Positions 16,658 through 55,547 of a stretch of DNA of 64,000 bases are shown here, piece after piece. Each line of letters opens with the position of its first letter. The stretch's first letter is position 1. Source of the DNA: Gammaproteobacteria bacterium (GTDB lineage Bacteria; Pseudomonadota; Gammaproteobacteria; UBA4575). A program made the translations under genes and the position numbers. The notes below the pieces were generated by a model. The model was not told the DNA's origin and did not search any database. It was given only the letters and a program-made list of their open reading frames with translations. The DNA is taken from NCBI GenBank assembly GCA_965221955.1, contig CBDCTA010000029.1, positions 160,001 to 224,000 of the forward strand, given 5' to 3'.

Positions 16658-18229
16658 ATGTGGTACAACTTTCCACAATCAAGATTAATCCAAATCTATA
16701 AAATTCTCACACTGACAGTTCTTCTGTTATTTGTTTGTGTGTCATGTACGACACTTGGTCCAGATTTTGAAACTCCAAAAGCGGATGTGTCTGATAGCTG
16801 GATTGACAGCACTTCTTCTAATATAAATACAAAAGAAAATAATCTAGAAAACTGGTGGAAAGTATTCAATGACCCTATCCTCGATTCTTTAATTTCTTCT
16901 GCATATAAGCAAAATTTAAGTTTACAAGTTGCTGGTTTACGCGTGCTTGAGGCACGTGCACAGTTAGGTATTGCAGTGGGTAATTTATATCCACAAAAAC
17001 AACAAGCAAGAGGGGGTGCAACTTATAACACCCTTAGTGAAAATGCGGCTAACACTGTCCAAGGTGACTTGGATTATTGGAATTATGATTCTGGTTTTGA
17101 TATTGCTTGGGAATTAGATTTTTGGGGAAAGTTCAAGCGCGGAATAGAGTCTGCAGATGCGAGCTTATTAGCAAGTATGGCAGATTATGATGACTTTTTA
17201 GTAAGTCTACTTGCAGAAGTGGCAAATGCTTATGTTGCGATTCGCACTTTTGAAAAACGTATCCAACTTGCCGAAGAAAATGTGGAGCTGCAACAACATA
17301 GCTTGCGTATTACTGAAGTACGTTTTGAGAATGGGGCAACAACTGAGCTAGATGTGCAACAAGCGAAAACATTACTACGCAACACCCAAGCGTCAATTCC
17401 TCAGTTAAGAGCAGGAAATCGACAAGCCCGCCATGCCCTAAGTACTTTATTAGGGAAACCTCCTGAAGAGCTGAATGTAATTTTAGATGGCGCGATTGAA
17501 ATTCCTGCAGCGCCTCTCGAAGTTGCGGCTGGAATACCTGCAGAATTATTACGTAGGCGGCCCGACATTCGAAGAGCAGAATTTGAAACCGCAGCGCAAA
17601 GTGCATTAATTGGAGTGGCAAAGGCGGACCTTTATCCAAGTTTTTCTTTGGTGGGTTCACTAGGCCTGAAATCAAGTAGTAAAACCAATACAACGCGCAG
17701 CGGTGAAGATGGTGCTGATGAGTTATTTGATAGTGATAGCATAGAGTTTTTTGGTGGACCGTCTTTTAGTTGGAATATTTTCAACTATGGCCGCATTAAA
17801 AACCAAGTACGTGTACAAGATGCACGTTTTCAGCAGTTGCTTATCAACTATCAAGATACTGTATTACGCGCTGCTCGTGAGGTTGAAGATTCTATGGTAG
17901 GTTTTTTACAAGCGAGGCAAGCTGAAGAATACTTAAGTGAAAGTGTTGCAGCTGCATCACGTTCGGTTGAGCTAGCACTTATTCAATATCGAGATGGCGT
18001 TGAAAATTATCAACGTGTAATTGATACACAGACTTCACTTGTAAGTCAGCAAGATATATGGACTCAAACGCGTGGAAGTATCGCAACGAATCTAATCGAG
18101 ATGTATAGAGCCTTAGGCGGGGGTTGGCAAATTCGCCAAGCCAAAGGAAAGAATGAAAATTATGTGCCAGAAAATATAAAAAACAAAATGCGTGAAAGAA
18201 CAGATTGGGGAAAGTATTTAGACCAATAA
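16658..18229 (+). CDS. RND efflux outer-membrane lipoprotein (NodT/OprM family)
   Basis: Lipobox, WELDFWGK, P.ELLRRRPDIRRAE, YRALGGGW. Confidence 0.93.
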   Translation: MWYNFPQSRLIQIYKILTLTVLLLFVCVSCTTLGPDFETPKADVSDSWIDSTSSNINTKENNLENWWKVFNDPILDSLISSAYKQNLSLQVAGLRVLEARAQLGIAVGNLYPQKQQARGGATYNTLSENAANTVQGDLDYWNYDSGFDIAWELDFWGKFKRGIESADASLLASMADYDDFLVSLLAEVANAYVAIRTFEKRIQLAEENVELQQHSLRITEVRFENGATTELDVQQAKTLLRNTQASIPQLRAGNRQARHALSTLLGKPPEELNVILDGAIEIPAAPLEVAAGIPAELLRRRPDIRRAEFETAAQSALIGVAKADLYPSFSLVGSLGLKSSSKTNTTRSGEDGADELFDSDSIEFFGGPSFSWNIFNYGRIKNQVRVQDARFQQLLINYQDTVLRAAREVEDSMVGFLQARQAEEYLSESVAAASRSVELALIQYRDGVENYQRVIDTQTSLVSQQDIWTQTRGSIATNLIEMYRALGGGWQIRQAKGKNENYVPENIKNKMRERTDWGKYLDQ

Positions 18230-27822: not shown

Positions 27823-28890
27823 ATGACACATCAAGTTAACCTTAAATCTGGAAAATACAAATTCATGGCTGATGAACATGAATCGATATTAGATGCTGCA
27901 ATTCGTGCAGGTGTTCCGTTGAATTACGGGTGCAGTAATGGAAATTGTGGTTTGTGTAAAGCAAAGATAGTGTCAGGAAAAACTTTGCAGCTACGCAAGC
28001 ACGATTTTGTGATAGGTGACGCTGATAAAATTCAGGGTCACGCGTTAATGTGTTCGACAACCTGTCAAAGTGATCTGGTAATTGAGGCTGAGGTTGCAGC
28101 AACTGCAAGTGATATCCCAATACAAGAGCTTCGCGTCAAAGTACGTAAAATTGACCGTATTAGTGATGATTTGGTGATCATTACCTTGCAAGTACCTAGA
28201 AGTATGCGATTGCGTTTTATGGCAGGCCAATATATGCGCGTTTATGATGATCAACAACGCTCACATGAGTATGCGATTGCTAGTTGCCCATGCGATGAAA
28301 AACGTATTGAATTTCATGTTCGTAAGCTTGAAGAGGATACTTTTTCTCACATGGTCTTTAAGCAACTCAGTGTGGGTGATTGGTTAAATTTACAAGGTCC
28401 ATATGGCGACTTTGTAGTTGATGACAGTAGTGATGTTCCCATTGTAATGATTGCATTTGATACTGGGTTTGCAGCAATAAAAAGCTTATTAGAACATGTT
28501 ACTGCACAAGAAAAAGAGCGAGCCATTTTTCTATACTGGCTAGCTTGTGGGGCAGAGGGTTTGTATTTAAATAATTTGTGTCGTTCTTGGGCGGACGCAC
28601 TAGATGAATTGCATTATATTCCTTTGCACATAGACAGGAATGTTGATCAATTATTAGATAGCGAATACGAAGGTCTAGGTATTATTGAAGATAAGCTTGT
28701 CTCGTCATTACATCATATACAGAGCTTACAAAATGCAGAGGTCTTTCTAGTATCGCCCGAACCGATTTCTAAGCTGGTTAAGCAAATGCTTATGGCAGAA
28801 GGATTTCAATCCAGCCACATTCATCATGAAATCATTCGTGGTAATCCAAATTTACAATGCATTCATCCATCGGGTGTAGTTTATGATTGA
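27823..28890 (+). CDS. 2Fe-2S ferredoxin fused to an FAD/NAD reductase-like domain
   Basis: C-x4-C-x2-C...C, AGQY, GPYG; NAD motifs degenerate (FDTGF, VSPEP). Confidence 0.87.
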   Translation: MTHQVNLKSGKYKFMADEHESILDAAIRAGVPLNYGCSNGNCGLCKAKIVSGKTLQLRKHDFVIGDADKIQGHALMCSTTCQSDLVIEAEVAATASDIPIQELRVKVRKIDRISDDLVIITLQVPRSMRLRFMAGQYMRVYDDQQRSHEYAIASCPCDEKRIEFHVRKLEEDTFSHMVFKQLSVGDWLNLQGPYGDFVVDDSSDVPIVMIAFDTGFAAIKSLLEHVTAQEKERAIFLYWLACGAEGLYLNNLCRSWADALDELHYIPLHIDRNVDQLLDSEYEGLGIIEDKLVSSLHHIQSLQNAEVFLVSPEPISKLVKQMLMAEGFQSSHIHHEIIRGNPNLQCIHPSGVVYD

Positions 28891-40221: not shown

Positions 40222-40737
40222 TTAAAACCCTTCGGTCGAGGTAAACAGCCCTACACGTAAATCTTTAGTTTTATAAATTTCTTTTCCATCTACGGACATC
40301 ACACCATCTGCAATTCCCATTGCCGTACCACGGCTGATTACTCTTTTAATATCAAGATGATATTGCACAGTTTTCGCAGTAGGTAAAACTTGGCCCGTAA
40401 AACGGACCTCATTAACACCAAGCGCACGACCCCTGCCTGGGTTGCCTTGCCAGGCAATGAAGAATCCCAAGAGCTGCCATAAGGCATCTAGTCCTAAGCA
40501 TCCTGGCATTACGGGATCACCTGGGAAATGGCAATCAAAAAACCATAAGTCAGGTTTGATATCGAGCTCGGCTTCTACTTCGCCGCGCCCATAATTACCG
40601 TTCTCACTCGAAATTTTCGTGATGCGATCCATCATTAACATATTGGGCATGGGTAGTTGTGCATTGCCTGGGCCAAACATTTCACCTCTGCCGCAGGCAA
40701 GCAGGTCTTCATAAGAAAAGGAATTTTTTTGCGTCAC
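40222..40737 (-). CDS. fabA: 3-hydroxyacyl-ACP dehydratase/isomerase
   Basis: [30 protein letters not shown]. Confidence 0.97.
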
Positions 40738-40866: not shown

Positions 40867-41838
40867 TTAAGAAAGACGATCGTTTTGTTTCACGCGATCA
40901 AGCAATAAAAATAGCTCGCTAATGGTTTGAATGAAGTTAGCTTGAATTTCTTGCAATACATCAAAGTATGCAGCGGCACCACTCCCGGTTACCGCAATTT
41001 CAATATTATCATTCAACTCAGCACGTAGCCTACGCAACTGATTGGGCAATAAGGGATCATCAGCTGGGCGAGTAATGCCAATAGCGATGATCTGTGCATT
41101 ACTTTTTTGTTGAGTAAAGATAATTTCATCAACTGTTCCATACATGCCTAAAAATATTGCCTGCCAACCATTTGATTTGCTCGCTGCCGCAAGTCGTAAC
41201 GCAGCAATATCGCTTACTGATCCTGTAGGTGAGGCGCATATGAGTTTATATTTTGATTCAACAAAAGGTTCACTCATCACTAAGCTTGAAAGGAATCCAC
41301 GAATGGAATAAATGGCCACAGCATAATGTGCATCACGTAATGCACCACGCCGACATTCATCTTGAATATGAGAAACTAAGGGTCGTAAAAGATCTTCTAA
41401 CAAAAATATAATCCCTAATGATTTAGATGCATCACTTAATGAGTGAAAAATATCCTGGCTATTAAATCGTTGTACTGCATCTAAACAATCATCGAAGTAT
41501 TCCATGACAGAGCCAGTACTCGGGCGTTGTTCAATTTTTGCAATGGGTAAACGGGCTGCTGCAGATTCATCGGTATCTACAAGTTCGCGAAGTTTTTTAA
41601 CTGATAAATTTGCGACTTCTCCGATACGTCGTCCAGCTGAGGTTGCACGACGTAGTAGTATGAGTTTTTCTACATCGCCATCGCTGTATAAACGACGACT
41701 GTTACTAGCGCGTTGCGGGGATACGACACTATAACGACGTTCCCAAACACGAATCACATCAGCGCTAAGACCCGTTCGCCTTGCAACTACTTGGATGGGG
41801 TGTTGGTTATCCGAAACGTTTATCTGTTTGCTAGCCAC
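40867..41838 (-). CDS. MerR-family regulator with a CarH/CarA-like cobalamin-binding-fold C-terminus (ligand motifs degenerate)
   Basis: VARRTGLS.DVIRVWERRY..V.P.R....RRLYS HTH, then helical cap and Rossmann-like domain. Confidence 0.85.
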   Translation of the reverse strand: MASKQINVSDNQHPIQVVARRTGLSADVIRVWERRYSVVSPQRASNSRRLYSDGDVEKLILLRRATSAGRRIGEVANLSVKKLRELVDTDESAAARLPIAKIEQRPSTGSVMEYFDDCLDAVQRFNSQDIFHSLSDASKSLGIIFLLEDLLRPLVSHIQDECRRGALRDAHYAVAIYSIRGFLSSLVMSEPFVESKYKLICASPTGSVSDIAALRLAAASKSNGWQAIFLGMYGTVDEIIFTQQKSNAQIIAIGITRPADDPLLPNQLRRLRAELNDNIEIAVTGSGAAAYFDVLQEIQANFIQTISELFLLLDRVKQNDRLS

Positions 41839-41845
41839 GCCGGTC

Positions 41846-41900
41846 TGTCATAGTTATGTCTAAGATATTGTAGCAAATATGTCTGTTTATTGTAACAATT
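41846..41900. promoter_or_regulatory. TGT-led direct repeats at about 11-bp spacing (CarH-type operator candidate)
   Basis: TGT(C/A) at 41846, 41857, 41869, 41880 and 41891. Confidence 0.5.
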
Positions 41901-42076
41901 CTAGGGCATCGTCATAGCTTTGTATTAGACAAATTTGGGTCAGAAAGGGGTGAAGCCTTGTGTATCCAAGTAGCTAAATGTATATTTAACACATAGAAAG
42001 ATTTAGTTTGAAGGCCTTGTTCTGATGGGCCAAGTAGGTATTTAGGCATTAGCCTGACATGTAAACGGAGGCAAAC

Positions 42077-43219
42077 ATGAAGAAATTTTTAATCAACGCG
42101 CGGTACTTTTTAGCACCGTTACTTATCTTAGCGTCCTTATTTGGCGTACTTGCGGGGGGTCCCTGGGTGTGGACCGGCGTACTTCTACTGGGTGCTGGGA
42201 TCATCATCGACACCCTAACGACAGCCCAAACCCCAGGAGCTGGTTTTGACGAAAATGGCGACACCAACGGCATCGTACCCCTATTAAATGGCACCATGTA
42301 CGGCATGCTCGCCGTGTTTGCCCTGATTCAAATCGCCCTAGCTTGGCGCATCTGGCAATACGTCAATGGCGTACCCATTGGCACCACCGAAATTCTAGGC
42401 CTCACCGTCCAAGACGGCATTACCGGCACCCAACTATGGGGCGCTGTCATGTCCTCCGGCATCTTCGCCGGTATTGGCATTATTTATGGTCACGAACTGG
42501 CCCACACCAAAGGCTTCAGCTTCGTCATTGCACGCTGGATGATGGCCCTAAGTGGCAAAGCCCACTTCTGCTATGCCCACGTCTACAACCACCACCTAGA
42601 ACTCGGTCACCAAGACGACCCTGCTACCGCCCCACGTGGACGCAGCATGTACACCCACTACCCTCTTTCTGGACTGGGTCAAAGCAAATTCCTCTTCATG
42701 ATGGAAAAACAACGTCTTGAACGCCTAGGCGTACCCTTTTTATCCTGGCAAAACCGCTGGATTCGAGGCTACTTCATGGCCCTGCCTACCGTCCTACTAT
42801 TCTGGTTCGTAGGCGGCTGGCTTGGCATGCTCTGCTTGGCAGGCGTATGGCTCATCTCCAACTTCGAGCTCGAAGTCCTCAACTACCTTGAGCACTACGG
42901 CCTCATTCGAGAAAAAGGTCAGCCGATAGACTACCGACATAGCTGGGACAACAGCACCGCATTTACCAGCTGGTTCTTTATTGAAATTGGTCGCCAAGCC
43001 GACCACCACGACCGAGGTGAGACCCACTTCTGGGAACTCGACGAAGTCGGCGCCCCCAACTGCGGACGCGGGTACTTCACCCTGTTTGCACTGGGCCTAC
43101 TGCCTCCGGTATTCCATGCCTACATGAAGGAACAATTGGCGAAATGGGATGACGAGATGGCCTCTGAGGGCGAATTAAAGATCGCCAATCAGATGAATAA
43201 ACAAGCTGGATACGTGTAA
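42077..43219 (+). CDS. Membrane di-iron monooxygenase, AlkB/XylM family
   Basis: HELAH, HVYNHH, NYLEHYG, QADHH; XylM-like termini; RBS ggagg. Confidence 0.9.
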   Translation: MKKFLINARYFLAPLLILASLFGVLAGGPWVWTGVLLLGAGIIIDTLTTAQTPGAGFDENGDTNGIVPLLNGTMYGMLAVFALIQIALAWRIWQYVNGVPIGTTEILGLTVQDGITGTQLWGAVMSSGIFAGIGIIYGHELAHTKGFSFVIARWMMALSGKAHFCYAHVYNHHLELGHQDDPATAPRGRSMYTHYPLSGLGQSKFLFMMEKQRLERLGVPFLSWQNRWIRGYFMALPTVLLFWFVGGWLGMLCLAGVWLISNFELEVLNYLEHYGLIREKGQPIDYRHSWDNSTAFTSWFFIEIGRQADHHDRGETHFWELDEVGAPNCGRGYFTLFALGLLPPVFHAYMKEQLAKWDDEMASEGELKIANQMNKQAGYV

Positions 43220-43252: not shown

Positions 43253-43290
43253 GCCCCGGTTCTATTTCTAGAACCGGGGCTTTTTTATTT
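43253..43290 (+). terminator. Strong intrinsic terminator after the monooxygenase
   Basis: gccccggttcta-tttc-tagaaccggggc-tttttt. Confidence 0.92.
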
Positions 43291-43472: not shown

Positions 43473-44192
43473 ATGGTCGAAAAATTTAATCCACAACAAG
43501 CGAATAAGAGTTCCCTATCAGATTCAGTAAGTTCATTACAATCTGGAGATGAACGTGCATGGTTTGAAAATGAGTTAATTAAATTTCGACTACAACTTAA
43601 AGAATTACCACCACAAGCCAGTAACCTAGAACGCGCTAAGTTAGAGTTAGAAATCTCAGAAGTATTTATCGGCTTGAATCGTTTAGATGAAGCTTGGGAA
43701 AGTGCGCGACCTCTAGTGGAATTATTTATTGTTGAGAATGAATTTGAATTCGCAGTGCGTGCGTACCGTGTTTTGTATCAAGCAGATCATGAATTATCCA
43801 TTGCAGCGCTAGGGCAAGGATGTTGGTTAGCCGTGACCTATCCAATCAACCCAACATTAAGCGTTGAAATGCTGCATAACATTATTGACGAAACTCCAGA
43901 CAATTCTGATGGTGCTGCTGTAGCTGCGATGGCTGCACAATATATTGCAGATATGCGTGGTGAGGAACATCGTGAAAACTTAATGTTCTTAACCACACAA
44001 ATTGTGGCAAAAGTCGCAAAACGTCATCGTAATATCGAAGGCGAAGAAATGATAAAAACTTGGATTGAGATCTTAGAACTCAACGACACCGATCAATTAT
44101 TTATACGATTAGCCCAGATAATCGATACCATTACGGCCGATAACTGGTGGTTTGATCGGGATGAACTTCGCGCGCAATTACCTGTAAATTAA
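43473..44192 (+). CDS. Hypothetical helical protein
   Basis: 239-aa ORF; no family recognised. Confidence 0.8.
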   Translation: MVEKFNPQQANKSSLSDSVSSLQSGDERAWFENELIKFRLQLKELPPQASNLERAKLELEISEVFIGLNRLDEAWESARPLVELFIVENEFEFAVRAYRVLYQADHELSIAALGQGCWLAVTYPINPTLSVEMLHNIIDETPDNSDGAAVAAMAAQYIADMRGEEHRENLMFLTTQIVAKVAKRHRNIEGEEMIKTWIEILELNDTDQLFIRLAQIIDTITADNWWFDRDELRAQLPVN

Positions 44193-44358: not shown

Positions 44359-44910
44359 ATGGAGAGCGTGGTGACTGTTTCAGCACAACAAGCTGGCTTC
44401 ACCCTAATTGAGTTAATGATTGTCATCATATTAGTGGCGATTTTTATAACTGTGGGTGTGCCTAGTTTTCAAAATTTAGTCAGCGATAATCGCTTAGTGA
44501 CACAAGCGAATCGACTTGTGTCGTCTTTACAGTTTGCACGTTCTGAAGCTCTAAAGTTACGAACTCCTGTTTCTGTATGTCGAACCACTAATGGAACAGC
44601 TTGTGCGGGCGCTGGGAATTGGGAATCAGGTTGGTTGATTTTTGTGGACGCTGCAAATTTTGGAACAGTAGATGCTGGTGAAACGGTCCTACAGGTAAGC
44701 AGTGGGCTTAGTGCAGGAAATACACTACGTGGTTCTGCTGCACCTTTTAATAATTTAGTGACTTACCAGCCTTCTGGATTACAAAATGCAGGTGCAGGGA
44801 GTTTTAGTTTATGTGATGGTCATAACCCCGACATAAATAAAGCAAGACAGATTTCAATTTCTCCAACAGGCCGTGTGCAAACTACAACAGGTGTAGCAGC
44901 TTGTCCTTAA
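44359..44910 (+). CDS. fimT: Type IV minor pilin FimT/FimU
   Basis: GFTLIELMI, ARSEA, W..GW, I.ISPTGR. Confidence 0.9.
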   Translation: MESVVTVSAQQAGFTLIELMIVIILVAIFITVGVPSFQNLVSDNRLVTQANRLVSSLQFARSEALKLRTPVSVCRTTNGTACAGAGNWESGWLIFVDAANFGTVDAGETVLQVSSGLSAGNTLRGSAAPFNNLVTYQPSGLQNAGAGSFSLCDGHNPDINKARQISISPTGRVQTTTGVAACP

Positions 44911-44925
44911 GTTTGAAGTACTAAT

Positions 44926-45549
44926 ATGAAAATAGTTTTTACACAACACAAATATCAACACATGACCTTATGCAAAAGATCTATGTCAGGTTTATCGTTG
45001 ATTGAAATCTTAATCACAGTTGTAGTGTTATCTATTGGATTGTTGGGAATCGCAGGTATGCAAGCATTTGGAATGCGTTATAGCCATGATTCTTACGCGC
45101 GTAGTCAAGCGACTATGTTGGCAAATGAGCTCATTGAGCGTATGCATGCAAATCCAGATGCAGTGAGTAATGGTGATTATAAAGCAGCTGTTGATGCGCT
45201 AGATTGTACAAGCGTGAATAATGACCCTGCCCACCCAATGAATGCTGCGCCTTCATGTACAGGTTCTACTACAAGTGAGCTTTGCACTGTTTCTCAGCTT
45301 GCAGTACTCGATTCCTTTCGAATTGGTTGTGGACAATTTCTTGCGGTTCCAAACGCGCTAGTAGGTGGGGCTAATAATTTATTGTCCAATGGACAAGTTG
45401 CAATAACTTGTACTGATTCAAGCCCTGGTGTTGCACCTGAATGTGAAGGCGATAATAACCGAACGGTAACTATTACTTGGCAAGATCCAGATGATAAAGG
45501 TAACGCATTGTCAACGTTGCAAGTTGAAGTAAATGCAAGATTCTTATGA
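44926..45549 (+). CDS. pilV: Type IV minor pilin PilV
   Basis: GLSLIEIL...LSIGLLGIAGMQ...RSQA..LA....ERM.AN. Confidence 0.92.
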   Translation: MKIVFTQHKYQHMTLCKRSMSGLSLIEILITVVVLSIGLLGIAGMQAFGMRYSHDSYARSQATMLANELIERMHANPDAVSNGDYKAAVDALDCTSVNNDPAHPMNAAPSCTGSTTSELCTVSQLAVLDSFRIGCGQFLAVPNALVGGANNLLSNGQVAITCTDSSPGVAPECEGDNNRTVTITWQDPDDKGNALSTLQVEVNARFL

Positions 45550-46307
45550 ACAATTTAAAATTCAATATACATAAGCAAAATGGGCTTTCAATTGTTGAAC
45601 TCATGATCGCATTAGTCCTTTCGCTTGTTGTGATGCTTGTTACAACGAGTATTTATGTGAGCAATAAACAAACTTACCGTTTTTTAGATCAATATAGTTT
45701 ATTACAGGAAAATGGGCGATTCGCCATTTTCTTTTTGCGAGAGCATTTGCTTCAAGCGGGATTCCCTCGTCAGTCGAATGTTAATCCTTTTCCAGTTGTC
45801 CCAGGAAATAACACAGGTACAAATGGAAGTGATACGTTAACCGTGCAATTTAGATCTGCTGTGGATTGTTTGAATGATGTTCCGGCAGGTGCATTGCCAT
45901 TAAAGCTTACACAAAACACATTTCAATTAAGTGCAAATAATGAATTGACGTGCAATGGTAATGGTCTTGTAGGTGGTGTTGATCAGCCCGCACAGCCATT
46001 GGTGGATGGAATTGTAAATATACAAGCAGAGTATGGAGTCGACACGGATGCAGATGGTATTGCAAATACCTATGCAAATTCAGCAGTTGTGAATGGCGGT
46101 GTAATTAGTGCAGGAACACCCGATTGGGATAATGTTGTTTCAGTTCGCATCGCAGTATTAGTTGAAGGTGAAGCTAATACTTTAGATCAAGCGCAAGCCA
46201 TTACCTATAACTTATTAGGCGTTCCAGACTCCTATAACGATCGGACTCCAAGACGTGTTTTCACTACAACTATTCCTTTGCGTAATCGCAACAAAACAAT
46301 TATTTAG
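45546..46307 (+). CDS. pilW: Type IV minor pilin PilW
   Basis: GLSIVELMIAL, LQENGRFA, YGVD, V.SVRI..L, F.TTI.LRN. Confidence 0.92.
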   Translation: MNNLKFNIHKQNGLSIVELMIALVLSLVVMLVTTSIYVSNKQTYRFLDQYSLLQENGRFAIFFLREHLLQAGFPRQSNVNPFPVVPGNNTGTNGSDTLTVQFRSAVDCLNDVPAGALPLKLTQNTFQLSANNELTCNGNGLVGGVDQPAQPLVDGIVNIQAEYGVDTDADGIANTYANSAVVNGGVISAGTPDWDNVVSVRIAVLVEGEANTLDQAQAITYNLLGVPDSYNDRTPRRVFTTTIPLRNRNKTII

Positions 46308-46832
46308 GTGGCAGCCATGAAGATATCAATTCGAAAACAACAAGGTGTTGTATTAGTTGTTGGATTATTAATGCTACTTATTATCACCATTGTTGGTGTT
46401 ACAGCAATGAGTGATACCACTATGAATGAAAGAATGACAGCAAATCATCAATTTCAAACATTAAGTTTTCAAGCCGCCGAGTCTGCTATTCACGATAACT
46501 TTAATGTGCCATCTGTTGTACCTTCAGTAATGGCGGTAAATTGGTTTGTTGACCCTGCTCCAACAAATTATAACGTTGATATTAAAAGTGGTTCACCTAT
46601 TGCAGTTCAAGCAGACGCAAGTATTCAGTTCTGTGGTGAAGAGTTGCCTATGGGTTCAGGGTTTTGCAATGGTTTAGCTGGGGGCTGCGATATCGATCAG
46701 GTGTTCGATGTACGAGGGGAAGGGCAAGTAAGTGCTTTAGGTACTCAAGAACAGCACTTACGCAGAGGTTCGCGCGCAATGATGAGTGCGGGATTAGCAT
46801 TTGATACAACAAAATGTGACCAAGTGCCATAA
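46308..46832 (+). CDS. pilX: Type IV minor pilin PilX
   Basis: QQGVVLVVGL (no Glu5), ERM..N, FQAAESA. Confidence 0.88.
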   Translation: MAAMKISIRKQQGVVLVVGLLMLLIITIVGVTAMSDTTMNERMTANHQFQTLSFQAAESAIHDNFNVPSVVPSVMAVNWFVDPAPTNYNVDIKSGSPIAVQADASIQFCGEELPMGSGFCNGLAGGCDIDQVFDVRGEGQVSALGTQEQHLRRGSRAMMSAGLAFDTTKCDQVP

Positions 46833-46870
46833 AACTTAAAAAGGATTTTTAGGTTATTTTTAAAAGAGAG

Positions 46871-49828
46871 TTGGATATTATGAAAACGTTAACGCGTAAG
46901 TTTAGTTTAAGCACATTAAGTTGTGTGATTGTATTTATAAGTAATATATCTTTTGTATATGCAGATGATATAGAGATTTATAACCGTACAACAAATATTC
47001 CTAATTTATTATTTATTATTGATACATCAGGCAGTATGGGTGATCCTGTAGATTCTTCTAATTCAAGTAGCCCGTCTCGATTAAGTGCCGTCCAAACGGC
47101 ATTTCAAAATATTTTAAGTCAACCTTATTCGTTGCTGAATGTTGGGGTTATGAATTTTAGTGGTGATACAGGCAGTGGTGTAGATTTACCAGTAGCTGAT
47201 GTAAATCAGTTAGCAAATAATGTTGAGTCAGGAGTGGTCAGCACAACAGAAACATACGCACAACTCTTAACCCGAAATGTAAATGCACTTTCAGATGGTG
47301 GTAATACTCCAACTGTACAAGCATTATATGAAGCAGCGCTATATTTTCGTGGAGATGATGTTCACAGCGGAGCAACAGGGACACTTCATACGGGGTGGGA
47401 TGACAACGTTAGTGTATCAATGTATACGGGAGGTGATTCCACATCTGCAGGTTTACGAACGTACATAACTGGAACGAGTGGACCTGAATATATTTCTCCT
47501 ATTCAGACCGCATGTACTGAAAACTTCATAGTATTACTTTCTGATGGAAAGCCCACGAGAGAAGATTCAACGATTCAAGCAAATATAAGAACACTTACTG
47601 GTAAAACTAGCTGCGACGATTTGGGGTCATTGGGTATTGCTGACACTGAAATAATAGACAAAGGTGAATGCGGTATAGATTTGCTTAGTTATTTGAACAC
47701 TGTAGATCAAAGCTCAAGTTCAGTTGGGACTAATCAACCTGGAGATCAATTTATTACTACTCATACTATTGGTTTCCAAATAGATGGTGACGGCAAAAAA
47801 TACTTGGAAGAGTTAGCCAATGCAGGGGGTGGAATTTTTTACGATGCAAGTGATCCTTCTTCATTGGTAACCACATTACAAAATATTGTTACTGCAATAA
47901 CGCAAAAATCGAGAACAATTACAGCCATAGGCAATACGTTAGACTTAAGCACATTGGGTTCAAGTCGTGATGAAATTTATGTACCTATGTTTGTTGCTAA
48001 TCCTAATAGACCTCGTTGGCAAGGTAACTTTAAGGGTTATTTATTGGATCCAGGTGGTTTTCTTACAGGTTTAGATGGAAATCCTGTATTTACATCAACA
48101 GGTGATTTTGAACCATCCGCAAGAAGTTTTTGGACATCGACTGCTGATGGTGGAGATATTAATGAAGGTGGGGTCGCGGCATTATTAAATCCAAGCACAC
48201 GTAATGTTATGACAGATGATGGGGCTGGAAACTTAATTAGTTTTGATGCTGCAAATTCTAGTTTGACGGGTAATCCATCTTTGTTTGGTTTGCCTGGGAC
48301 TACAACAACTTCCGAGCTACAGGATTTAATTAATTGGGCAAGAGGCGTTGATATAAATGATGAAGATTTAGATGGAAGCACATCTGATGCGAGAAATTTT
48401 GTAGGTGACCCACTACACACTAATCCAGTTGTTGCAAACTACACGGGTGGATCTATTGAACGAGTTGCTTTCTTTATGACTAATGAAGGTTATCTTCACG
48501 CAATTGATGTAACCGGCAATACATCCACTACAGGTGGAAATGAGTTGTTTTCATTTATGCCACGTGAATTGTTAGATAATTTAGACCCATTACGAAAAAA
48601 TGTTGGTGGAACAGCTAAAATTTATGGTTTGGATGGGCCGTTAGTACTTTTCCAAGTTGGGGGAGCCGCAAATGCAGCTGGCAATAAATATCTTTACTTC
48701 GGAATGCGTCGTGGAGGTCTAAATTACTACGCAGTTGACGTTACGAACCCTAGTTCTCCATCCTTGATGTGGAAAATCGAAGGTGGAATAGGAGATTTCC
48801 AAGAGATGGGACAATCGTGGTCTGAACCTATTGTTACAAACGTAACGCATGGTGGTTCAACCAAATTGGCTTTAGTGTTTGGTGGTGGCTATGACACTAC
48901 TCAAGATTCTGCGGTTACACATACTGTTGATAGTCGCGGTCGAGCGATCTATGTTGTTGATGCGGTTACCGGTACAAAGCTTTGGTCTGCAGGTCCAAGT
49001 GGAAGCCCAGATACGCATGATCTTACTCTTGGTTTAACTAACGGAATTGCTGGGGATGTATCTGTAATCGATCTTAATAGCGATACCATTGCAGATCGAC
49101 TTTATTTTGGTACTACAGGTGGTTCAATTTGGCGAGTTGATTTCCAGGGTGATTTGAATGGCAGTGCGGGTTTTAGCAATGATTTTTCAGGATATGAATT
49201 AGCACGATTCCATGGAAGCGCAATAAATGATAATCGTAGATTTTTTGCAAGACCAGTGGCTGCATTGACCTCCAATGGAAAACTTGCGGTCACAGTTGGT
49301 TCTGGTCATCGGTCTCACCCGCTTGATACTGCAGTACAAGATCGCCTTTATACGATTTATGATCCTAATATAAATAGCGTGCCGACTTCTGCACCTGTAG
49401 TAATTACTGATAGTGATCTTCAAGATTTAACAGGCTTTACTAGTGGTTTTGATTCTTCCGGTTCATTAGTATCAGGTTGGCGGGTTGATCTCGATATTGC
49501 AGGTGAAAAAGTTTTCAATGCTGCAAGTGTACTGCGTGGAGAAGTATTTATCAGCACATACTATCCTCCAACTACTATGTGTTCTAATGATCCAGATGGT
49601 TCGCGATTATTTGTGGTGGACCTTGAAGGCAATCCAACCCGAAATTTAGATGGTGATATAAATGGAATTAAAGATCCATACGTTACAATTTTGAACTTCG
49701 GTATTGTTCCAGAGCTTACTTTACACTACGGATCAACTGGTATGGTGCGAGGTGTGTTTTTACCAAACATTGGTGATATATATACATCCGGAACACTTGA
49801 AGACCGATTTTGGACAAATAATCCTTAA
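46871..49828 (+). CDS. pilY1: PilY1/PilC adhesin with vWA domain
   Basis: DDIEIY, DTSGSM MIDAS, GD..H..P, GMRRGG, GQSWS.P, Ca-loop DLNSDTIAD. Confidence 0.92.
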   Translation: MDIMKTLTRKFSLSTLSCVIVFISNISFVYADDIEIYNRTTNIPNLLFIIDTSGSMGDPVDSSNSSSPSRLSAVQTAFQNILSQPYSLLNVGVMNFSGDTGSGVDLPVADVNQLANNVESGVVSTTETYAQLLTRNVNALSDGGNTPTVQALYEAALYFRGDDVHSGATGTLHTGWDDNVSVSMYTGGDSTSAGLRTYITGTSGPEYISPIQTACTENFIVLLSDGKPTREDSTIQANIRTLTGKTSCDDLGSLGIADTEIIDKGECGIDLLSYLNTVDQSSSSVGTNQPGDQFITTHTIGFQIDGDGKKYLEELANAGGGIFYDASDPSSLVTTLQNIVTAITQKSRTITAIGNTLDLSTLGSSRDEIYVPMFVANPNRPRWQGNFKGYLLDPGGFLTGLDGNPVFTSTGDFEPSARSFWTSTADGGDINEGGVAALLNPSTRNVMTDDGAGNLISFDAANSSLTGNPSLFGLPGTTTTSELQDLINWARGVDINDEDLDGSTSDARNFVGDPLHTNPVVANYTGGSIERVAFFMTNEGYLHAIDVTGNTSTTGGNELFSFMPRELLDNLDPLRKNVGGTAKIYGLDGPLVLFQVGGAANAAGNKYLYFGMRRGGLNYYAVDVTNPSSPSLMWKIEGGIGDFQEMGQSWSEPIVTNVTHGGSTKLALVFGGGYDTTQDSAVTHTVDSRGRAIYVVDAVTGTKLWSAGPSGSPDTHDLTLGLTNGIAGDVSVIDLNSDTIADRLYFGTTGGSIWRVDFQGDLNGSAGFSNDFSGYELARFHGSAINDNRRFFARPVAALTSNGKLAVTVGSGHRSHPLDTAVQDRLYTIYDPNINSVPTSAPVVITDSDLQDLTGFTSGFDSSGSLVSGWRVDLDIAGEKVFNAASVLRGEVFISTYYPPTTMCSNDPDGSRLFVVDLEGNPTRNLDGDINGIKDPYVTILNFGIVPELTLHYGSTGMVRGVFLPNIGDIYTSGTLEDRFWTNNP

Positions 49829-52050: not shown

Positions 52051-54345
52051 ATGCAGACCGATAAAATTAAAGCGCCCGAAGGGCATTCTATTCACCATGT
52101 AACTTGCCCACATGATTGTCCTGATTCATGTTCGATGTTGGTTACACGCGATGATTCCACTGGTAAAGCCGTACGTGTGCAAGGCGATCCAACTCATCCT
52201 ATTACGCGTGGATACTTATGTAACAAAGTAAATCATTACCTTGATTTGGTCTACAACGACAATCGTGTTTTATATCCTCACAAACGTGTTGGACCAAAAG
52301 GACCCGGTGCAAAGTTTGAACGTATTACCTGGGATGAGGCGCTCGATACCATTACTGACAATTTTAAGAGTGTGATCAGTGAGTATGGTAGTGCGGCCGT
52401 ACAACCCTATTCATATTCTGGAACCATGGGAATGGTGGGTTATTGGACCATGGATTATCGCTTCTGGAACAAGATGCAAGCGGCAGGATTGGTGCAGTCG
52501 ATTTGTATTTATGCTGCGATGTGGGCGGATTTGCACACTTATGGATTAGCCCACTCCAATATGTCAGTGCATGAAGCGGCACAAGAAGCAGATTTAATGA
52601 TTCTTTGGGGTGCTAATCTAGTAAGTACTGGTGTACATGCGATCCCATTTATACGTGAAGCCAAAGAACGTGGCATGAAGTTAATTGTAATCGACCCACG
52701 TGTTACACGTACTACGATGATGGCGGATTGGCACATCCAACCGAAGCCCGGAACAGATGCTGCATTGGCGTTAGGTATGATGAAAGTCATCGTCGATGCA
52801 GGTAAACATGATTTAGACTTCCTTAAAGAACAAACCAATGGTTGGGAAGCATTAATCGAAACCAAACTTCCAGATTATCCATTAGATAAAGTTGAAGAAA
52901 TAACAGGAGTTCCCGCAGCAGACATCGAAAAACTAGCGTTGGAATATGCCTCAACGAAGAAAACTTGTATCCGTGCTAATTACGGATTAAATCGTCACCA
53001 GAATGCTGGTCAAATGTGTCGAGCTATTTTAATACTTCCGTGTATTACCGGTGCATGGCGCGAAAAATGTGGCGGCGTAAGTTTTGGTACTTTGAATGAA
53101 ATGTGGTTCCGTTGTATGAGTGATGCATTGCATCGCCCTGATCTTGGAAAACGCAAGCGCGCTATTAATATGGTGCAGATAGGTCGGGCCTTGTCTGAAA
53201 ATATTGGAGCGGATGGTGAACAACTTGATCCGCCTATTAAAAGTATCTTTGTATACAACTCAGACCCTGCTAATTGTGCACCAAATACCAATGCAGTGCG
53301 TAAAGGTTTTATGCGCGATGATTTGTTTGTCGCAGTGCATGAAACTTTTTGGACCGATACCTGTAACTATGCAGACATAGTGATCCCAGCGGATACACAG
53401 CTAGAGCGTATGGATATGGTAGCCACTTATGGCAACTGGTATTTCACTATGAATAAGCCGGTGATCGAGCCGCTTGGCGAGAGTGTGCGTAATTCTGAGT
53501 TGTTTCGTATGTTAGCCAAGAAGATGGATTATGTTGAAGAAGGAGATAATGCCTTTACACAAACGGATGAAGAAATTATTCGTGATGTATTGTGTGATGA
53601 AGGTAAAAACAACTTGCTCATGGAAGGTATTAAGTATGAAGACTTTGAAAACAAAGGCTTTGTACGCGCGAATACCGCCACAGAAAGTCGAAATTTCATG
53701 AAAAATGGCTGGCCAACTCCTTCAGGTAAAATTGATATTTGGTGTGAAGCGTTAAAAGAAGAAGGTATAGATCCATTACCAACCTATGTGCCTGAAATTG
53801 AAGGACAAGAAGATCCCAAGCGTAAGAAGTATCCGTTACAAGTTTTAAGTAGCGCGTCACACTATTTTATTGGTGATTCATTCCAATCCGTACCACGCTT
53901 ACAAGCAATGATGTCTAGACCGACGGTCGAGCTAAACCCAAATGAAGCTAAAAAACGTGGTTTAGAAGATGGCGATTTGTGCCGAATTTACAATGATCGT
54001 GGAGAAACCTATGCTTATCTTGTCGTCATTGAAGGGCATGTGGATGGTATCTGTTCTACTCAAAAGCAGTTTAAAGGCAGTAACACTCCAGGTGGTGTTA
54101 ACGTTAATGCGCTTAATACTGAGATGCTTACAGACTTTGGTACCAGTCCAACGTTTTATTCTTGTTTGGCAGAAGTAGAAAAAGCTAGCGAAGATATGCG
54201 TATACAAGCGTTGCTGAAAGAATGGGGTGGTAAAAAAGGCTATATCAAGAAGTGGCGTGAAGATCCGCGTAATGAGGGTGTAGAAGCGAGTGATGATGAA
54301 ATTATTGCTTTTGCTGAAAAGCAGCATCCAGGAGTGTTTAGCTAA
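52051..54345 (+). CDS. Cytoplasmic Mo/W-bisPGD oxidoreductase (DMSO reductase superfamily, uncharacterised clade)
   Basis: TCPHDCPDSC...C.K FS0 motif, ITWDEALD, PGTDAALALG, TPSGK; no Tat signal. Confidence 0.9.
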   Translation: MQTDKIKAPEGHSIHHVTCPHDCPDSCSMLVTRDDSTGKAVRVQGDPTHPITRGYLCNKVNHYLDLVYNDNRVLYPHKRVGPKGPGAKFERITWDEALDTITDNFKSVISEYGSAAVQPYSYSGTMGMVGYWTMDYRFWNKMQAAGLVQSICIYAAMWADLHTYGLAHSNMSVHEAAQEADLMILWGANLVSTGVHAIPFIREAKERGMKLIVIDPRVTRTTMMADWHIQPKPGTDAALALGMMKVIVDAGKHDLDFLKEQTNGWEALIETKLPDYPLDKVEEITGVPAADIEKLALEYASTKKTCIRANYGLNRHQNAGQMCRAILILPCITGAWREKCGGVSFGTLNEMWFRCMSDALHRPDLGKRKRAINMVQIGRALSENIGADGEQLDPPIKSIFVYNSDPANCAPNTNAVRKGFMRDDLFVAVHETFWTDTCNYADIVIPADTQLERMDMVATYGNWYFTMNKPVIEPLGESVRNSELFRMLAKKMDYVEEGDNAFTQTDEEIIRDVLCDEGKNNLLMEGIKYEDFENKGFVRANTATESRNFMKNGWPTPSGKIDIWCEALKEEGIDPLPTYVPEIEGQEDPKRKKYPLQVLSSASHYFIGDSFQSVPRLQAMMSRPTVELNPNEAKKRGLEDGDLCRIYNDRGETYAYLVVIEGHVDGICSTQKQFKGSNTPGGVNVNALNTEMLTDFGTSPTFYSCLAEVEKASEDMRIQALLKEWGGKKGYIKKWREDPRNEGVEASDDEIIAFAEKQHPGVFS

Positions 54346-54413: not shown

Positions 54414-55547
54414 ATGGCGACGGCACAAAAAAACTTTCATGATCCTTTTGATCAATTTATAAGAAAGCTACCCGAACCTAATCGTGACATTCAAACCAAA
54501 CGCGTAACAGTCAACCAAGGCATTATTAAAAGTGTTGAAAACCTCACTTACGATACGTACAAAGTTGTAATTAAGTGTAACGATGATTCTAAACAAATTG
54601 TGTTTAAGGCAGGGCAATATGCAACGATCACGGTGCCTGGTTGTAGAAAACCGCGCTCATATTCCTTTGCGTTGGCACCTGAAAATGAAAATAAAAACGA
54701 ATATTCGTTTTTTATTCGTTTAGTGCATGGGGGTAAGTTGTCAAGTTGGATAGCTCAAGAAAATCGTGAAGGTGAGCATGTAAAAATTTCAGGCCCTCTA
54801 GGAAAATTTGGGCTTGATTCATCTAACAAGACGATGGTTTGTATTGCTGGTGGTAGTGGTATGAGTGCTATCAATGCGATCGTTGAACAAGCATGTCAAG
54901 ACCAAGTAGAAAGAGACTGCTATTTCTTTTATGGAGCGCGCACACAAGCGGATTTATATCTACAAGAAGAAATGCAAGAGATAGCACGCAAGTGGAATAA
55001 AAATCACACCTTCAAATTTATTCCAGTATTGTCTGAAGAAGCTGAAGATAGTGATTGGGATGGACCACGCGGCTTCGTAACCGATCACTTCAAGAATGAA
55101 TATCTAAGCAAAGGTGTTGTTTCAGTAAACGATATGAAAGCTTTTTTCTGTGGTCCGCCGGTCATGATTGATCTTGGCGTTGAGGCGCTACAAGAAGCGG
55201 GCTTAGCAGATGAAAATATATATTTCGATAAATTTGAGGATTCGCGTTCACCTGCACCTGTAGTGGATAACACGAAATGCGTGTTGTGTGATGAATGCTT
55301 GATGGTGAAACCCACTCCAAACTGTTTGGTTGAGGCGACAAATTTTATAACTAATGGTGGTGGCAAGGTATCAAGTTTTGAACGAGTGACACCGGCTAAA
55401 ACATCAGGTTTGTACTATAACTCTCTATTCATTGATGAAAATGAATGTATAAGATGTTTTGCGTGTGTTGAGGCGTGTCCACATGATGCGATATCAGTTG
55501 ATTATGATAAGGTTCCTAAGACCCTTAGGAGAATCTCAAAGAATTAA
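54414..55547 (+). CDS. FAD/NAD(P)H reductase (XylA/DmpP-like core) with a C-terminal 4Fe-4S ferredoxin domain
   Basis: RSYS, GG..S, AGGSG, YGART..DLY, CGPP, then CxxCxxC and CxxCxxCxxxCP. Confidence 0.88.
   Translation: MATAQKNFHDPFDQFIRKLPEPNRDIQTKRVTVNQGIIKSVENLTYDTYKVVIKCNDDSKQIVFKAGQYATITVPGCRKPRSYSFALAPENENKNEYSFFIRLVHGGKLSSWIAQENREGEHVKISGPLGKFGLDSSNKTMVCIAGGSGMSAINAIVEQACQDQVERDCYFFYGARTQADLYLQEEMQEIARKWNKNHTFKFIPVLSEEAEDSDWDGPRGFVTDHFKNEYLSKGVVSVNDMKAFFCGPPVMIDLGVEALQEAGLADENIYFDKFEDSRSPAPVVDNTKCVLCDECLMVKPTPNCLVEATNFITNGGGKVSSFERVTPAKTSGLYYNSLFIDENECIRCFACVEACPHDAISVDYDKVPKTLRRISKN

Follow-up and report, generated by a model that had tools for sequence, protein, structure and literature searches.

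The principal sulfur gas of biological origin that the ocean releases is dimethylsulfide (DMS). For its conversion into methanethiol, the only enzyme known so far is DmoA, the FMNH2-dependent monooxygenase of the DmoA/DmoB system, and a December 2025 preprint, in its available text, marks an alternative DMS-to-methanethiol step with '?' and reports dmoA as rare. Two other described systems are closer in sequence to the gene studied here, which lies at 42077..43219 of a 64,000-nucleotide (nt) window of contig CBDCTA010000029.1 (coordinates without a prefix are positions in that window, and the source genome is the genome from which it comes). These are XylM/XylA of pWW0, a membrane di-iron hydroxylase with a Fer2-FAD-NAD reductase, and the alkane hydroxylase AlkB, in whose Fontimonas form (FtAlkB) nine His of four motifs hold two irons; the accessible part of PMC10110569 terms these His invariant, and indispensable in the AlkB of GPo1.

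The product of the gene resembles both enzymes and carries Gln where the ninth His would stand. Its relatives, its gene context and its co-occurrence with methanethiol enzymes suggest that it may be the hydroxylase of a XylMA-like, NADH-dependent monooxygenase of DMS or other methyl thioethers, a reading to which we assign a probability of about 0.5.

Metal ligands and fold of the hydroxylase

The hydroxylase and its ligand motifs are the following.

42077..43219, plus strand: hydroxylase subunit, an AlkB/XylM-fold integral-membrane di-iron protein of the Gln clade, 380 amino acids (aa)
42491..42505, plus strand: His box 1, HELAH (H139, H143), from the translation, invariant in a 42-sequence alignment
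42578..42595, plus strand: His box 2, HVYNHH (H168, H172, H173), in front of which stands Ala, shared with XylM, and not the Glu of AlkB
42881..42901, plus strand: NYLEHYG box (H273), with Glu kept where XylM has Gln
42986..43009, plus strand: last box, IGRQADHH, with Gln307 for the first His of HxxHH, and H310 and H311 kept
42995..42997, plus strand: CAA codon of Gln307, from the translation

The initial annotation of the window had read the last box as IGRQADHH with the other His boxes intact, and this was confirmed by translation and by residue alignment with solved AlkB, in which 'igrqadhh' falls on 'lqrhsdhh'. In the alignment of 42 sequences, H139, H143, H168, H172, H173, H273, H310 and H311 were invariant and position 307 was the sole ligand position that varied. 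Where AlkB/XylM-type monooxygenases have nine His, the hydroxylase has eight, with Gln307 in the ninth position; this residue may bind iron through its amide, or may leave an opened coordination site. XylM keeps His in the last box, as had also been annotated (pWW0 XylM reads EITNHINHH there).

The product scored 98.3 bits on Pfam FA_desaturase (PF00487, cut-off 29.7) and no NCBIfam model fitted it. Its only matches in the PDB were two Fontimonas AlkB entries (8sbb_A, 4.9e-25; 8f6t_A, 7.2e-23). When its AlphaFold (AF2) model (pLDDT 94.7, pTM 0.91) was searched with Foldseek, TM scores of 0.79 to 8sbb_A and 0.75 to 8f6t were obtained; at E<=0.001 FtAlkB was the sole match, and neither an acyl-desaturase nor any other fold was found. 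Front-end (delta-6 type) desaturases carry Gln for the first His of their last His box. The likeness to them that had been annotated for QxxHH stands as an analogy of motif but does not extend to fold and architecture, as the hydroxylase has the fold of AlkB and, by Pfam, no cytochrome b5 domain.

Compared with AlkB (FtAlkB 8F6T and 8SBB; GPo1), the hydroxylase shares the fold (TM 0.75-0.79), eight of the nine His and the NYxEHYG and HSW motifs, but it is 24% identical, has Gln for the ninth His, lacks a rubredoxin partner and belongs to another clade, and its N-terminal region does not align with those of classical AlkBs. XylM is of similar length, aligns over residues 4-379 and has the same Ala for Glu before box 2, but with 28% identity; it has His in HxxHH and Gln in NYxQHYG, whereas in the Gln family the last box has Gln and the NYxEHYG box retains Glu. 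DmoA belongs to an unrelated, soluble luciferase-like family, and the hydroxylase matched FA_desaturase only, and not TIGR03860 or PF00296. If the proposed reading is correct, the family would give mechanistic studies a naturally occurring His-to-Gln substitution in the AlkB di-iron site.

The Gln residue marks a clade

The motif RQ[AG]DHH was present in all 120 close homologs (72-93% identity) and in all 80 viral-contig homologs that were kept, and RQ[AGSC]DHH in every resolved member of an extended family from Gamma-, Beta- and Alphaproteobacteria and Acidimicrobiales (Actinobacteria). In a library clustered at 50% identity, similarity fell from 72% to 37% or less beyond the close homologs, and the nearest outgroup representatives read RHxxHH at the last box.

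The 138 rows of tree 1 were drawn from the 120 close homologs (13 rows), from 150 representatives (the 115 with 320-480 aa), from the source genome (three copies) and from references (seven). The whole family was recovered with an SH-aLRT support of 100 on a stem of 0.83 and the Gln clade with 98, and the 52%-identical paralog of the source genome, which reads IGRHSDHH, was basal in the family and outside the Gln clade. Trees 2 (41 rows) and 3 (52 rows) agreed, with Gln clades of 21 and 43 rows at 97 support each. By these alignments and trees, Gln at position 307 is clade-defining (97-98 support), so the residue is not private to the window sequence. The distinct subfamily that the initial annotation had put forward was likewise borne out as a 100-support clade on a long stem, nested neither in the characterised AlkB clade nor in that of XylM.

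The His-type sister paralog is rare, with three loci besides that of the source genome. In the latter (C14:51375-52586, locus L088), and also in L096 and L097, the His-keeping gene had no GST, reductase or small-protein neighbours; it constitutes a natural control for the role of Gln.

Tree 1 did not group the Gln family with the rubredoxin-type AlkBs but placed it in its other major clade, and XylM was the nearest characterised clade in the trees, a sister at 82-91 support in a join flagged as long-branch. A methyl-aromatic monooxygenase of the XylM kind (toluene, xylene or cymene type) would agree with this position, with the full-length 28% identity, with the shared Glu-to-Ala change and with the same type of reductase. 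However, the family is at best a sister of XylM, with weak support and with Gln for His, and its loci contain a small membrane protein, GST and globin but no xylB/xylC-type dehydrogenases or ring-cleavage genes nearby; its hosts, moreover, include streamlined planktonic genomes of 1.1 Mb. A methyl-aromatic substrate is considered very improbable.

Electron-transfer partners and the gene module

Two genes of the window bear on the supply of electrons.

54414..55547, plus strand: FNR-type reductase that has a 4Fe-4S-like region at its C-terminus but lacks an N-terminal 2Fe-2S domain
52051..54345: molybdopterin oxidoreductase, paired with reductase 54414..55547

Neither of the two reductases that had been suggested as partners in the initial annotation is the best candidate. 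That at 54414..55547, with no 2Fe-2S domain at its N-terminus and paired with the molybdopterin oxidoreductase, would be a weaker candidate electron donor; 27823..28890 is only 28% identical to XylA. The closest homolog of XylA is encoded elsewhere in the genome and not in the window, next to a twin of the hydroxylase gene at C26:24500-25639.

Neighbours were counted within three open reading frames (ORFs) of the target, in the 80 loci where ORF clustering recovered it. A XylA-type reductase was not found beside the window copy but was present at the identical twin, in 17/80 loci and in the extended family; a GST-fold protein was a neighbour in 19/80. The twin locus has the order MsrB, hydroxylase, GST-fold protein, Fer2-FAD-NAD reductase and small membrane protein. 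An intact ortholog of the twin-side reductase aligned along its whole length with pWW0 XylA at 38% identity (E 3e-83), and with the reductase adjoining a XylM-like gene at 41%. In the source genome, the XylA-type reductase (C26:26822-27881), GluQRS and DksA are each split in two ORFs (L086:9323-12259), which probably reflects an assembly indel error and not decay.

Other arrangements were found for other members. A 62%-identical paralog (type 2) stands beside ccoNO in the order Fnr, GST, GST, hydroxylase and 70-aa protein, and these five genes were together in 11/11 type-2 loci, even when rearranged, and in 0/5 His-type loci. In Kangiella, OCS116, Acidimicrobiales, Porticoccaceae and one of two SAR86 loci, the hydroxylase forms an operon with a 2Fe-2S ferredoxin of 102-109 aa and the small protein. 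This protein of about 70 aa has two predicted helices, a mostly conserved HH in the loop between them and near-invariant Trp residues (L087:8032-8244, alignment A2); it belongs to no known family, and its homologs were present in every type of context. The recurrent module is the hydroxylase with a Fer2-FNR reductase or a lone ferredoxin and the ~70-aa membrane protein, often accompanied by a GST-fold protein and a truncated globin.

The only rubredoxin of the source genome (C29:596248) lies about 394 kb away on the contig of the window, far from all four hydroxylase copies, and in the loci inspected no rubredoxin, rubredoxin reductase, alcohol dehydrogenase or aldehyde dehydrogenase stood beside the gene. 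This absence speaks against an alkane hydroxylase, for example one acting on cyanobacterial C15-C17 or short alkanes, as do the position outside the rubredoxin-type AlkB clade and the methanethiol and sulfur enzymes found as neighbours (see below). Alkane oxidation would fit the AlkB homology and fold and the annotation of relatives as 'alkane 1-monooxygenase'. It could also draw on surveys that count alkB in uncultured Gammaproteobacteria, SAR86 and UBA10353 included (PMC13488336, available part), where the link to the Gln family is putative. On balance it appears rather unlikely. The same surveys, as far as their accessible text goes, give UBA10353 and SAR86 among the expressing orders and one GCA-002705445 MAG (metagenome-assembled genome) expressing two copies, and Francis et al. 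describe, in the part available, expression of SBP56 and GSTs by the order GCA-002705445 (PMC8371827). The surveyed alkB genes of these three groups are, as a lead, putative members of the Gln family. An AlkB-like hit need not mean alkane degradation, and if the DMS reading is true, part of the 'alkB' signal of ocean metagenomes and metatranscriptomes would represent turnover of organosulfur compounds and not of alkanes.

Association with methanethiol enzymes

Depending on the lineage, three unrelated consumers of methanethiol or sulfide adjoin the gene: MtoX with SCO1/MauG, a SELENBP1-like SBP56, and MetY. MtoX, which scored 759-783 bits on its equivalog NF052453 (cut-off 650) in the target clusters, was followed by SCO1-MauG and clustered with hydroxylase-(globin)-(GST)-reductase in four genomes of a class sample of 400 Gammaproteobacteria (L185, L186, L187 and L188; L194 is the same place as L185). 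Two betaproteobacterial MAGs (L197, L198) likewise have MtoX flanking the gene, and in L198 SCO1/MauG belongs to the cluster too. SCO1-MauG is presented as the partner of MtoX in the accessible text of Eyice et al. (PMC5739008). The SELENBP1-like SBP56, with 566 bits on Pfam and only 117 bits on the MtoX model, directly follows hydroxylase-globin-reductase in L196, L200 and L210. MetY (O-acetylhomoserine sulfhydrylase, TIGR01326; 665 and 624 bits, cut-off 495) adjoins the gene divergently in two Kangiella loci, along with a MetX-homoserine dehydrogenase fusion, and on the same strand in two Acidimicrobiales loci. MetY is able to use methanethiol directly, and also accepts sulfide.

A gene for a 500-aa protein (L186:10270-11772, G241 cluster) stands between those of the reductase and MtoX in two genomes of 1.1 Mb, and a 39%-identical relative of this protein is found beside mtoX in L197. 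It had no match in Pfam, NCBIfam or the PDB, and a 90-aa protein of the same cluster had no family or PDB match.

A genome of the class sample was taken as positive if its hit reached 52% identity, which gave 17 genomes (in two, both incomplete, the hit was partial); 11 genomes with hits of 29-37% were scored as negative. Pfam SBP56 was found in 15/17 family-positive genomes vs. 34/383 others (Fisher 3e-13, uncorrected for kinship; three of these 34, G350, G196 and G362, are genomes flagged as unpublished). Among 61 genomes sampled from the family of Methylophaga sulfidovorans, 11 had the gene and 13 had MtoX, which was present in 11/11 genomes with the gene vs. 2/50 without it (Fisher 2e-10, again uncorrected for kinship), with 4.7-23 kb between both genes where they shared a contig. 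An NtaA/DmoA-family protein above the cut-off was found in none of the five genomes with clustered target and mtoX.

In the source genome, a methylated-sulfur/C1 island (C28:125000-142000, L189) holds a tandem mtoX pair, one copy of which is split by a TAG codon, with SCO1, MauG and two peroxiredoxins, and continues with SCO1, pterin-4a-carbinolamine dehydratase and fhcBADC. A SfnG equivalog is encoded with an FMN reductase on contig C2 of the same genome.

Among substrates, methylated sulfur compounds, already guessed at in the initial annotation, are those that gene context and co-occurrence would favour best. The same contexts apply equally to other small methylated or sulfur substrates (methanethiol, methylmercaptopropionate, dimethyl disulfide, intermediates of the dimethylsulfone pathway or methyl halides), with the GSTs handling a reactive product; such a substrate would suit the GST neighbours (19/80 loci overall, 11/11 of type 2), the SfnG of the source genome, the presence of the gene in Hyphomicrobium GJ21 and the use of sulfide by MetY. 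However, the three methanethiol consumers and the induction by DMS in M. thiooxydans described below would make methanethiol the product and DMS the inducer, and another substrate of this kind is judged unlikely.

Cultured carriers and published expression

Exact matches to FIEIGRQxDHHxRGET were found in at least 111 stretches, and 80 of these were examined. Among the matches listed were M. sulfidovorans DSM 11578, whose hydroxylase is 68% identical and is followed by globin, GST and reductase, Thiobacillus thioparus DSM 505, Hyphomicrobium sp. GJ21 and Kangiella sp. HZ709, together with MAGs labelled Thiodiazotropha, Thiogranum, Porticoccaceae, HTCC2207, SAR86 and Endobugula. MtoX scored above its cut-off in M. 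sulfidovorans DSM 11578, T. thioparus DSM 505 and Hyphomicrobium GJ21, each of which has the exact motif. Thiobacillus and Hyphomicrobium include classical DMS degraders. So does Methylophaga, according to the available text of PMC6548844. The family is a defined candidate with cultured sources (M. sulfidovorans, T. thioparus DSM 505, Hyphomicrobium GJ21, Kangiella HZ709), and therefore its putative role in DMS degradation is directly testable.

For M. thiooxydans, the accessible part of the same paper gives no dmoA or ddh and no detected DMS monooxygenase activity, and a 'DMS methyltransferase' presumed as the first enzyme and never identified (PMC6548844). Its Table S6 lists MDMS009_226, a 'fatty acid desaturase domain protein', at 1359 with DMS vs. 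10 with methanol (136-fold). In the same comparison, transcripts of the first and second mtoX were at 17350 vs. 37 and 4064 vs. 20, an NAD-binding oxidoreductase at 618 vs. 12, glbN at 601 vs. 21 and an 'aromatic hydrocarbon degradation' membrane protein at 1469 vs. 18 (PMC6548844, Table S6). By analogy, this DMS-induced set appears to mirror the hydroxylase-reductase-globin module.

The authors of PMC6548844 took the MDMS009_226 'desaturase' as a lipid-repair enzyme, in the text available. A membrane-lipid desaturase or hydroxylase that acts in the repair or adaptation of lipids under oxidative stress, including that from the peroxide produced by MtoX, would be in line with the Pfam FA_desaturase match and with neighbours such as FabA, the MerR/CarH-like regulator, MsrB, globin and peroxiredoxin. 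Nevertheless, the fold is that of AlkB and not of an acyl-desaturase, the codon bias of the gene is above that of EF-Tu (see below), MetY adjoins the gene in Kangiella and Acidimicrobiales genomes without MtoX, and stress repair gives no reason for so tight a tracking of MtoX (11/11 vs. 2/50). Lipid modification seems quite improbable.

Proposed reaction and its weighing

AlkB-type enzymes have precedents for ether demethylation and thioether oxidation. In the DMS monooxygenase reading, electrons from NADH would pass through the XylA-type reductase, or the ferredoxin, to the di-iron site, which would hydroxylate the S-bound methyl group of DMS or of some comparable small methyl thioether. The resulting hemithioacetal would collapse spontaneously to methanethiol and formaldehyde, and therefore no dehydrogenase would be needed beside the gene. 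The proposed reaction is that of DmoA, as is its place upstream of MtoX. Methanethiol would then be converted by MtoX or SBP56 into sulfide, formaldehyde and peroxide, or be assimilated by MetY; in the source organism, formaldehyde would enter the tetrahydromethanopterin (H4MPT) pathway, for which fhcBADC lies beside mtoX, and sulfide would enter sulfur oxidation. The type-2 paralog, with its Fnr-GST-GST cluster beside the cbb3 oxidase genes, may serve at low oxygen.

A broader proposal is that Methylophaga, Thiobacillus and numerous marine bacteria without DmoA turn DMS into methanethiol by means of the Gln-type enzyme, a conversion hitherto ascribed to a 'DMS methyltransferase'. The enzyme would be membrane-bound, with an unprecedented site of eight His plus Gln, and its gene would rank among the most codon-optimised of its hosts, be maintained as identical twins and have been captured several times by marine phages. 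This is put forward tentatively, at somewhat less than even odds.

Several results weigh against assigning the enzyme to DMS. The co-occurrence tests carry no correction for phylogeny, and their Fisher values overstate the evidence because relatives are not independent. In the order to which the window belongs, the gene (51/56 genomes) and mtoX (54/56) are both near-universal and not clustered, and none of the five genomes from the branch with Kangiella, SAR86, OCS116 and Acidimicrobiales yielded a hit to the MtoX equivalog. The source genome has an NtaA/DmoA-family monooxygenase at a separate locus (513 bits, C29:473592-475061), in addition to SfnG, and therefore does not require a second DMS enzyme. 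The GST, MsrB, globin and peroxiredoxin neighbours also fit a role in oxidative stress. Finally, the joining to XylM is weak (82-91 support only, with the long-branch flag) and MDMS009_226 is a putative member of the Gln family only. No literature linking AlkB- or XylM-like enzymes with DMS was found in a search that left subscription journals and PDF supplements outside its reach.

Copies in the source genome and codon bias

The source genome (2.69 Mb, 29 contigs) has four copies of the hydroxylase gene: that of the window, the twin on contig C26, which encodes an identical protein, the 62% Gln-type paralog, located 61 kb upstream on the contig of the window, and the 52%-identical His-type paralog. 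The twins have 1156 nt in common at 99.65%, corresponding to the coding sequence plus about ten flanking bases, and their flanks are unrelated. In the order of the window, many of the closed genomes among the 51 with the gene show two equal-scoring hits at distant sites. The pattern of identity fits concerted evolution and suggests ongoing gene conversion.

Of the 1214 ORFs that start with ATG and encode 250 aa or more, the twins had the highest GC content, and the highest GC content at third codon positions (GC3; 0.625 vs. a mean of 0.305, standard deviation 0.044). They were followed in GC3 by EF-Tu (0.584) and then by a duplicated solute-binding protein. Further down the list by GC content, with GC3 of ~0.36-0.42, came MreB, FabI, a porin, the H+-PPase, the ATP synthase alpha subunit and FtsZ. 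The GC3 of the target was above that of its neighbours in 77/79 loci. As judged from this strong codon bias, the twin copies are probably highly expressed. GC-biased gene conversion between the twins is a possible source of the GC content. Recent horizontal transfer was set aside as the explanation for the high GC (53% vs. 39%), as the other genes with high GC3 are EF-Tu, the porin, ATP synthase and the like.

The solute-binding protein constitutes a second identical gene pair (C26:55534-56883 and C29:454588-455964). It is a 450-aa periplasmic protein with a GC3 just under that of EF-Tu, and the pair differs solely in the longer predicted N-terminus of one copy.

Phage-borne copies

Relatives of 65-83% identity are encoded in 122 IMG/VR viral contigs. 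The 80 loci kept from these contigs (L211-L290) were all Gln-type, and none had the host neighbours. Examples from IMG/VR are the following.

L241:6001-7077: viral copy
L252:6001-7059: viral copy
L232:6001-7077: viral copy

Among 52 proteins scanned from the viral flanks were terminase, portal, major head and scaffold proteins, a T7-like RNA polymerase, a T4-like sheath stabiliser, helicase and ribonucleotide reductase, and one viral contig of 40.5 kb has a copy at each end (L241, L242). The 14 viral rows of tree 3 fell in at least four places, one of them next to M. sulfidovorans with a support of 98. The best cluster in the ESM Atlas is labelled as xylene monooxygenase hydroxylase, and viruses were its commonest label. 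From these contigs, the Gln-type gene looks like a widespread phage auxiliary metabolic gene, which, if the DMS reading is true, would be another such gene in the sulfur cycle. Genes such as psbA, amoC and pmoC are captured by phages in a comparable way, and capture fits a rate-limiting role in the energy metabolism of the host.

The window copy and its surroundings

The features around the window copy are given below.

42066..42070, plus strand: Shine-Dalgarno sequence GGAGG, 6 nt before the ATG of the hydroxylase
43253..43290, plus strand: intrinsic terminator, a 12-bp stem with 8 GC pairs followed by TTTTTTATTT, 34 nt past the stop codon
41839..42076, no strand: divergent intergenic region holding the Shine-Dalgarno sequence and a promoter-like site
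41896..41867, minus strand: promoter-like site for the minus-strand regulator, by consensus match only (1 found vs. a mean of 2.5 in shuffles)
40867..41838, minus strand: MerR-family regulator (Pfam MerR_1), divergent, with a degenerate CarH/LitR-like C-terminal domain
40222..40737, minus strand: FabA (Pfam FabA), a conserved neighbour past the regulator, candidate link only
43473..44192, plus strand: conserved 239-aa soluble protein past the terminator, with no assigned family

Because a Shine-Dalgarno sequence precedes the ATG and a terminator, with its 12-bp stem and T run at 43253..43280, follows the stop codon, the window copy is monocistronic, which agrees with the initial annotation; the upstream gene is divergent, and neither rubredoxin nor reductase adjoins the copy. 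The divergent MerR-type regulator would control its expression. Control by light or B12 through this CarH-like protein was rejected as unsupported: its B12-binding domain reached 24.3 bits, below the cut-off of 32.1, and the lower-ligand His of CarH is replaced by Ser in the CarH alignment.

By the same count within three ORFs, the MerR regulator was a neighbour of the target in 36/80 loci, FabA in 37/80 and the 239-aa protein, which had no match in Pfam, NCBIfam or the PDB, in 22/80. A block of type IV minor-pilin-like genes with N-terminal pilin signal sequences (44359..49828) separates the 239-aa neighbour from those genes that come after it in most relatives, an arrangement seen in only four loci of the set.

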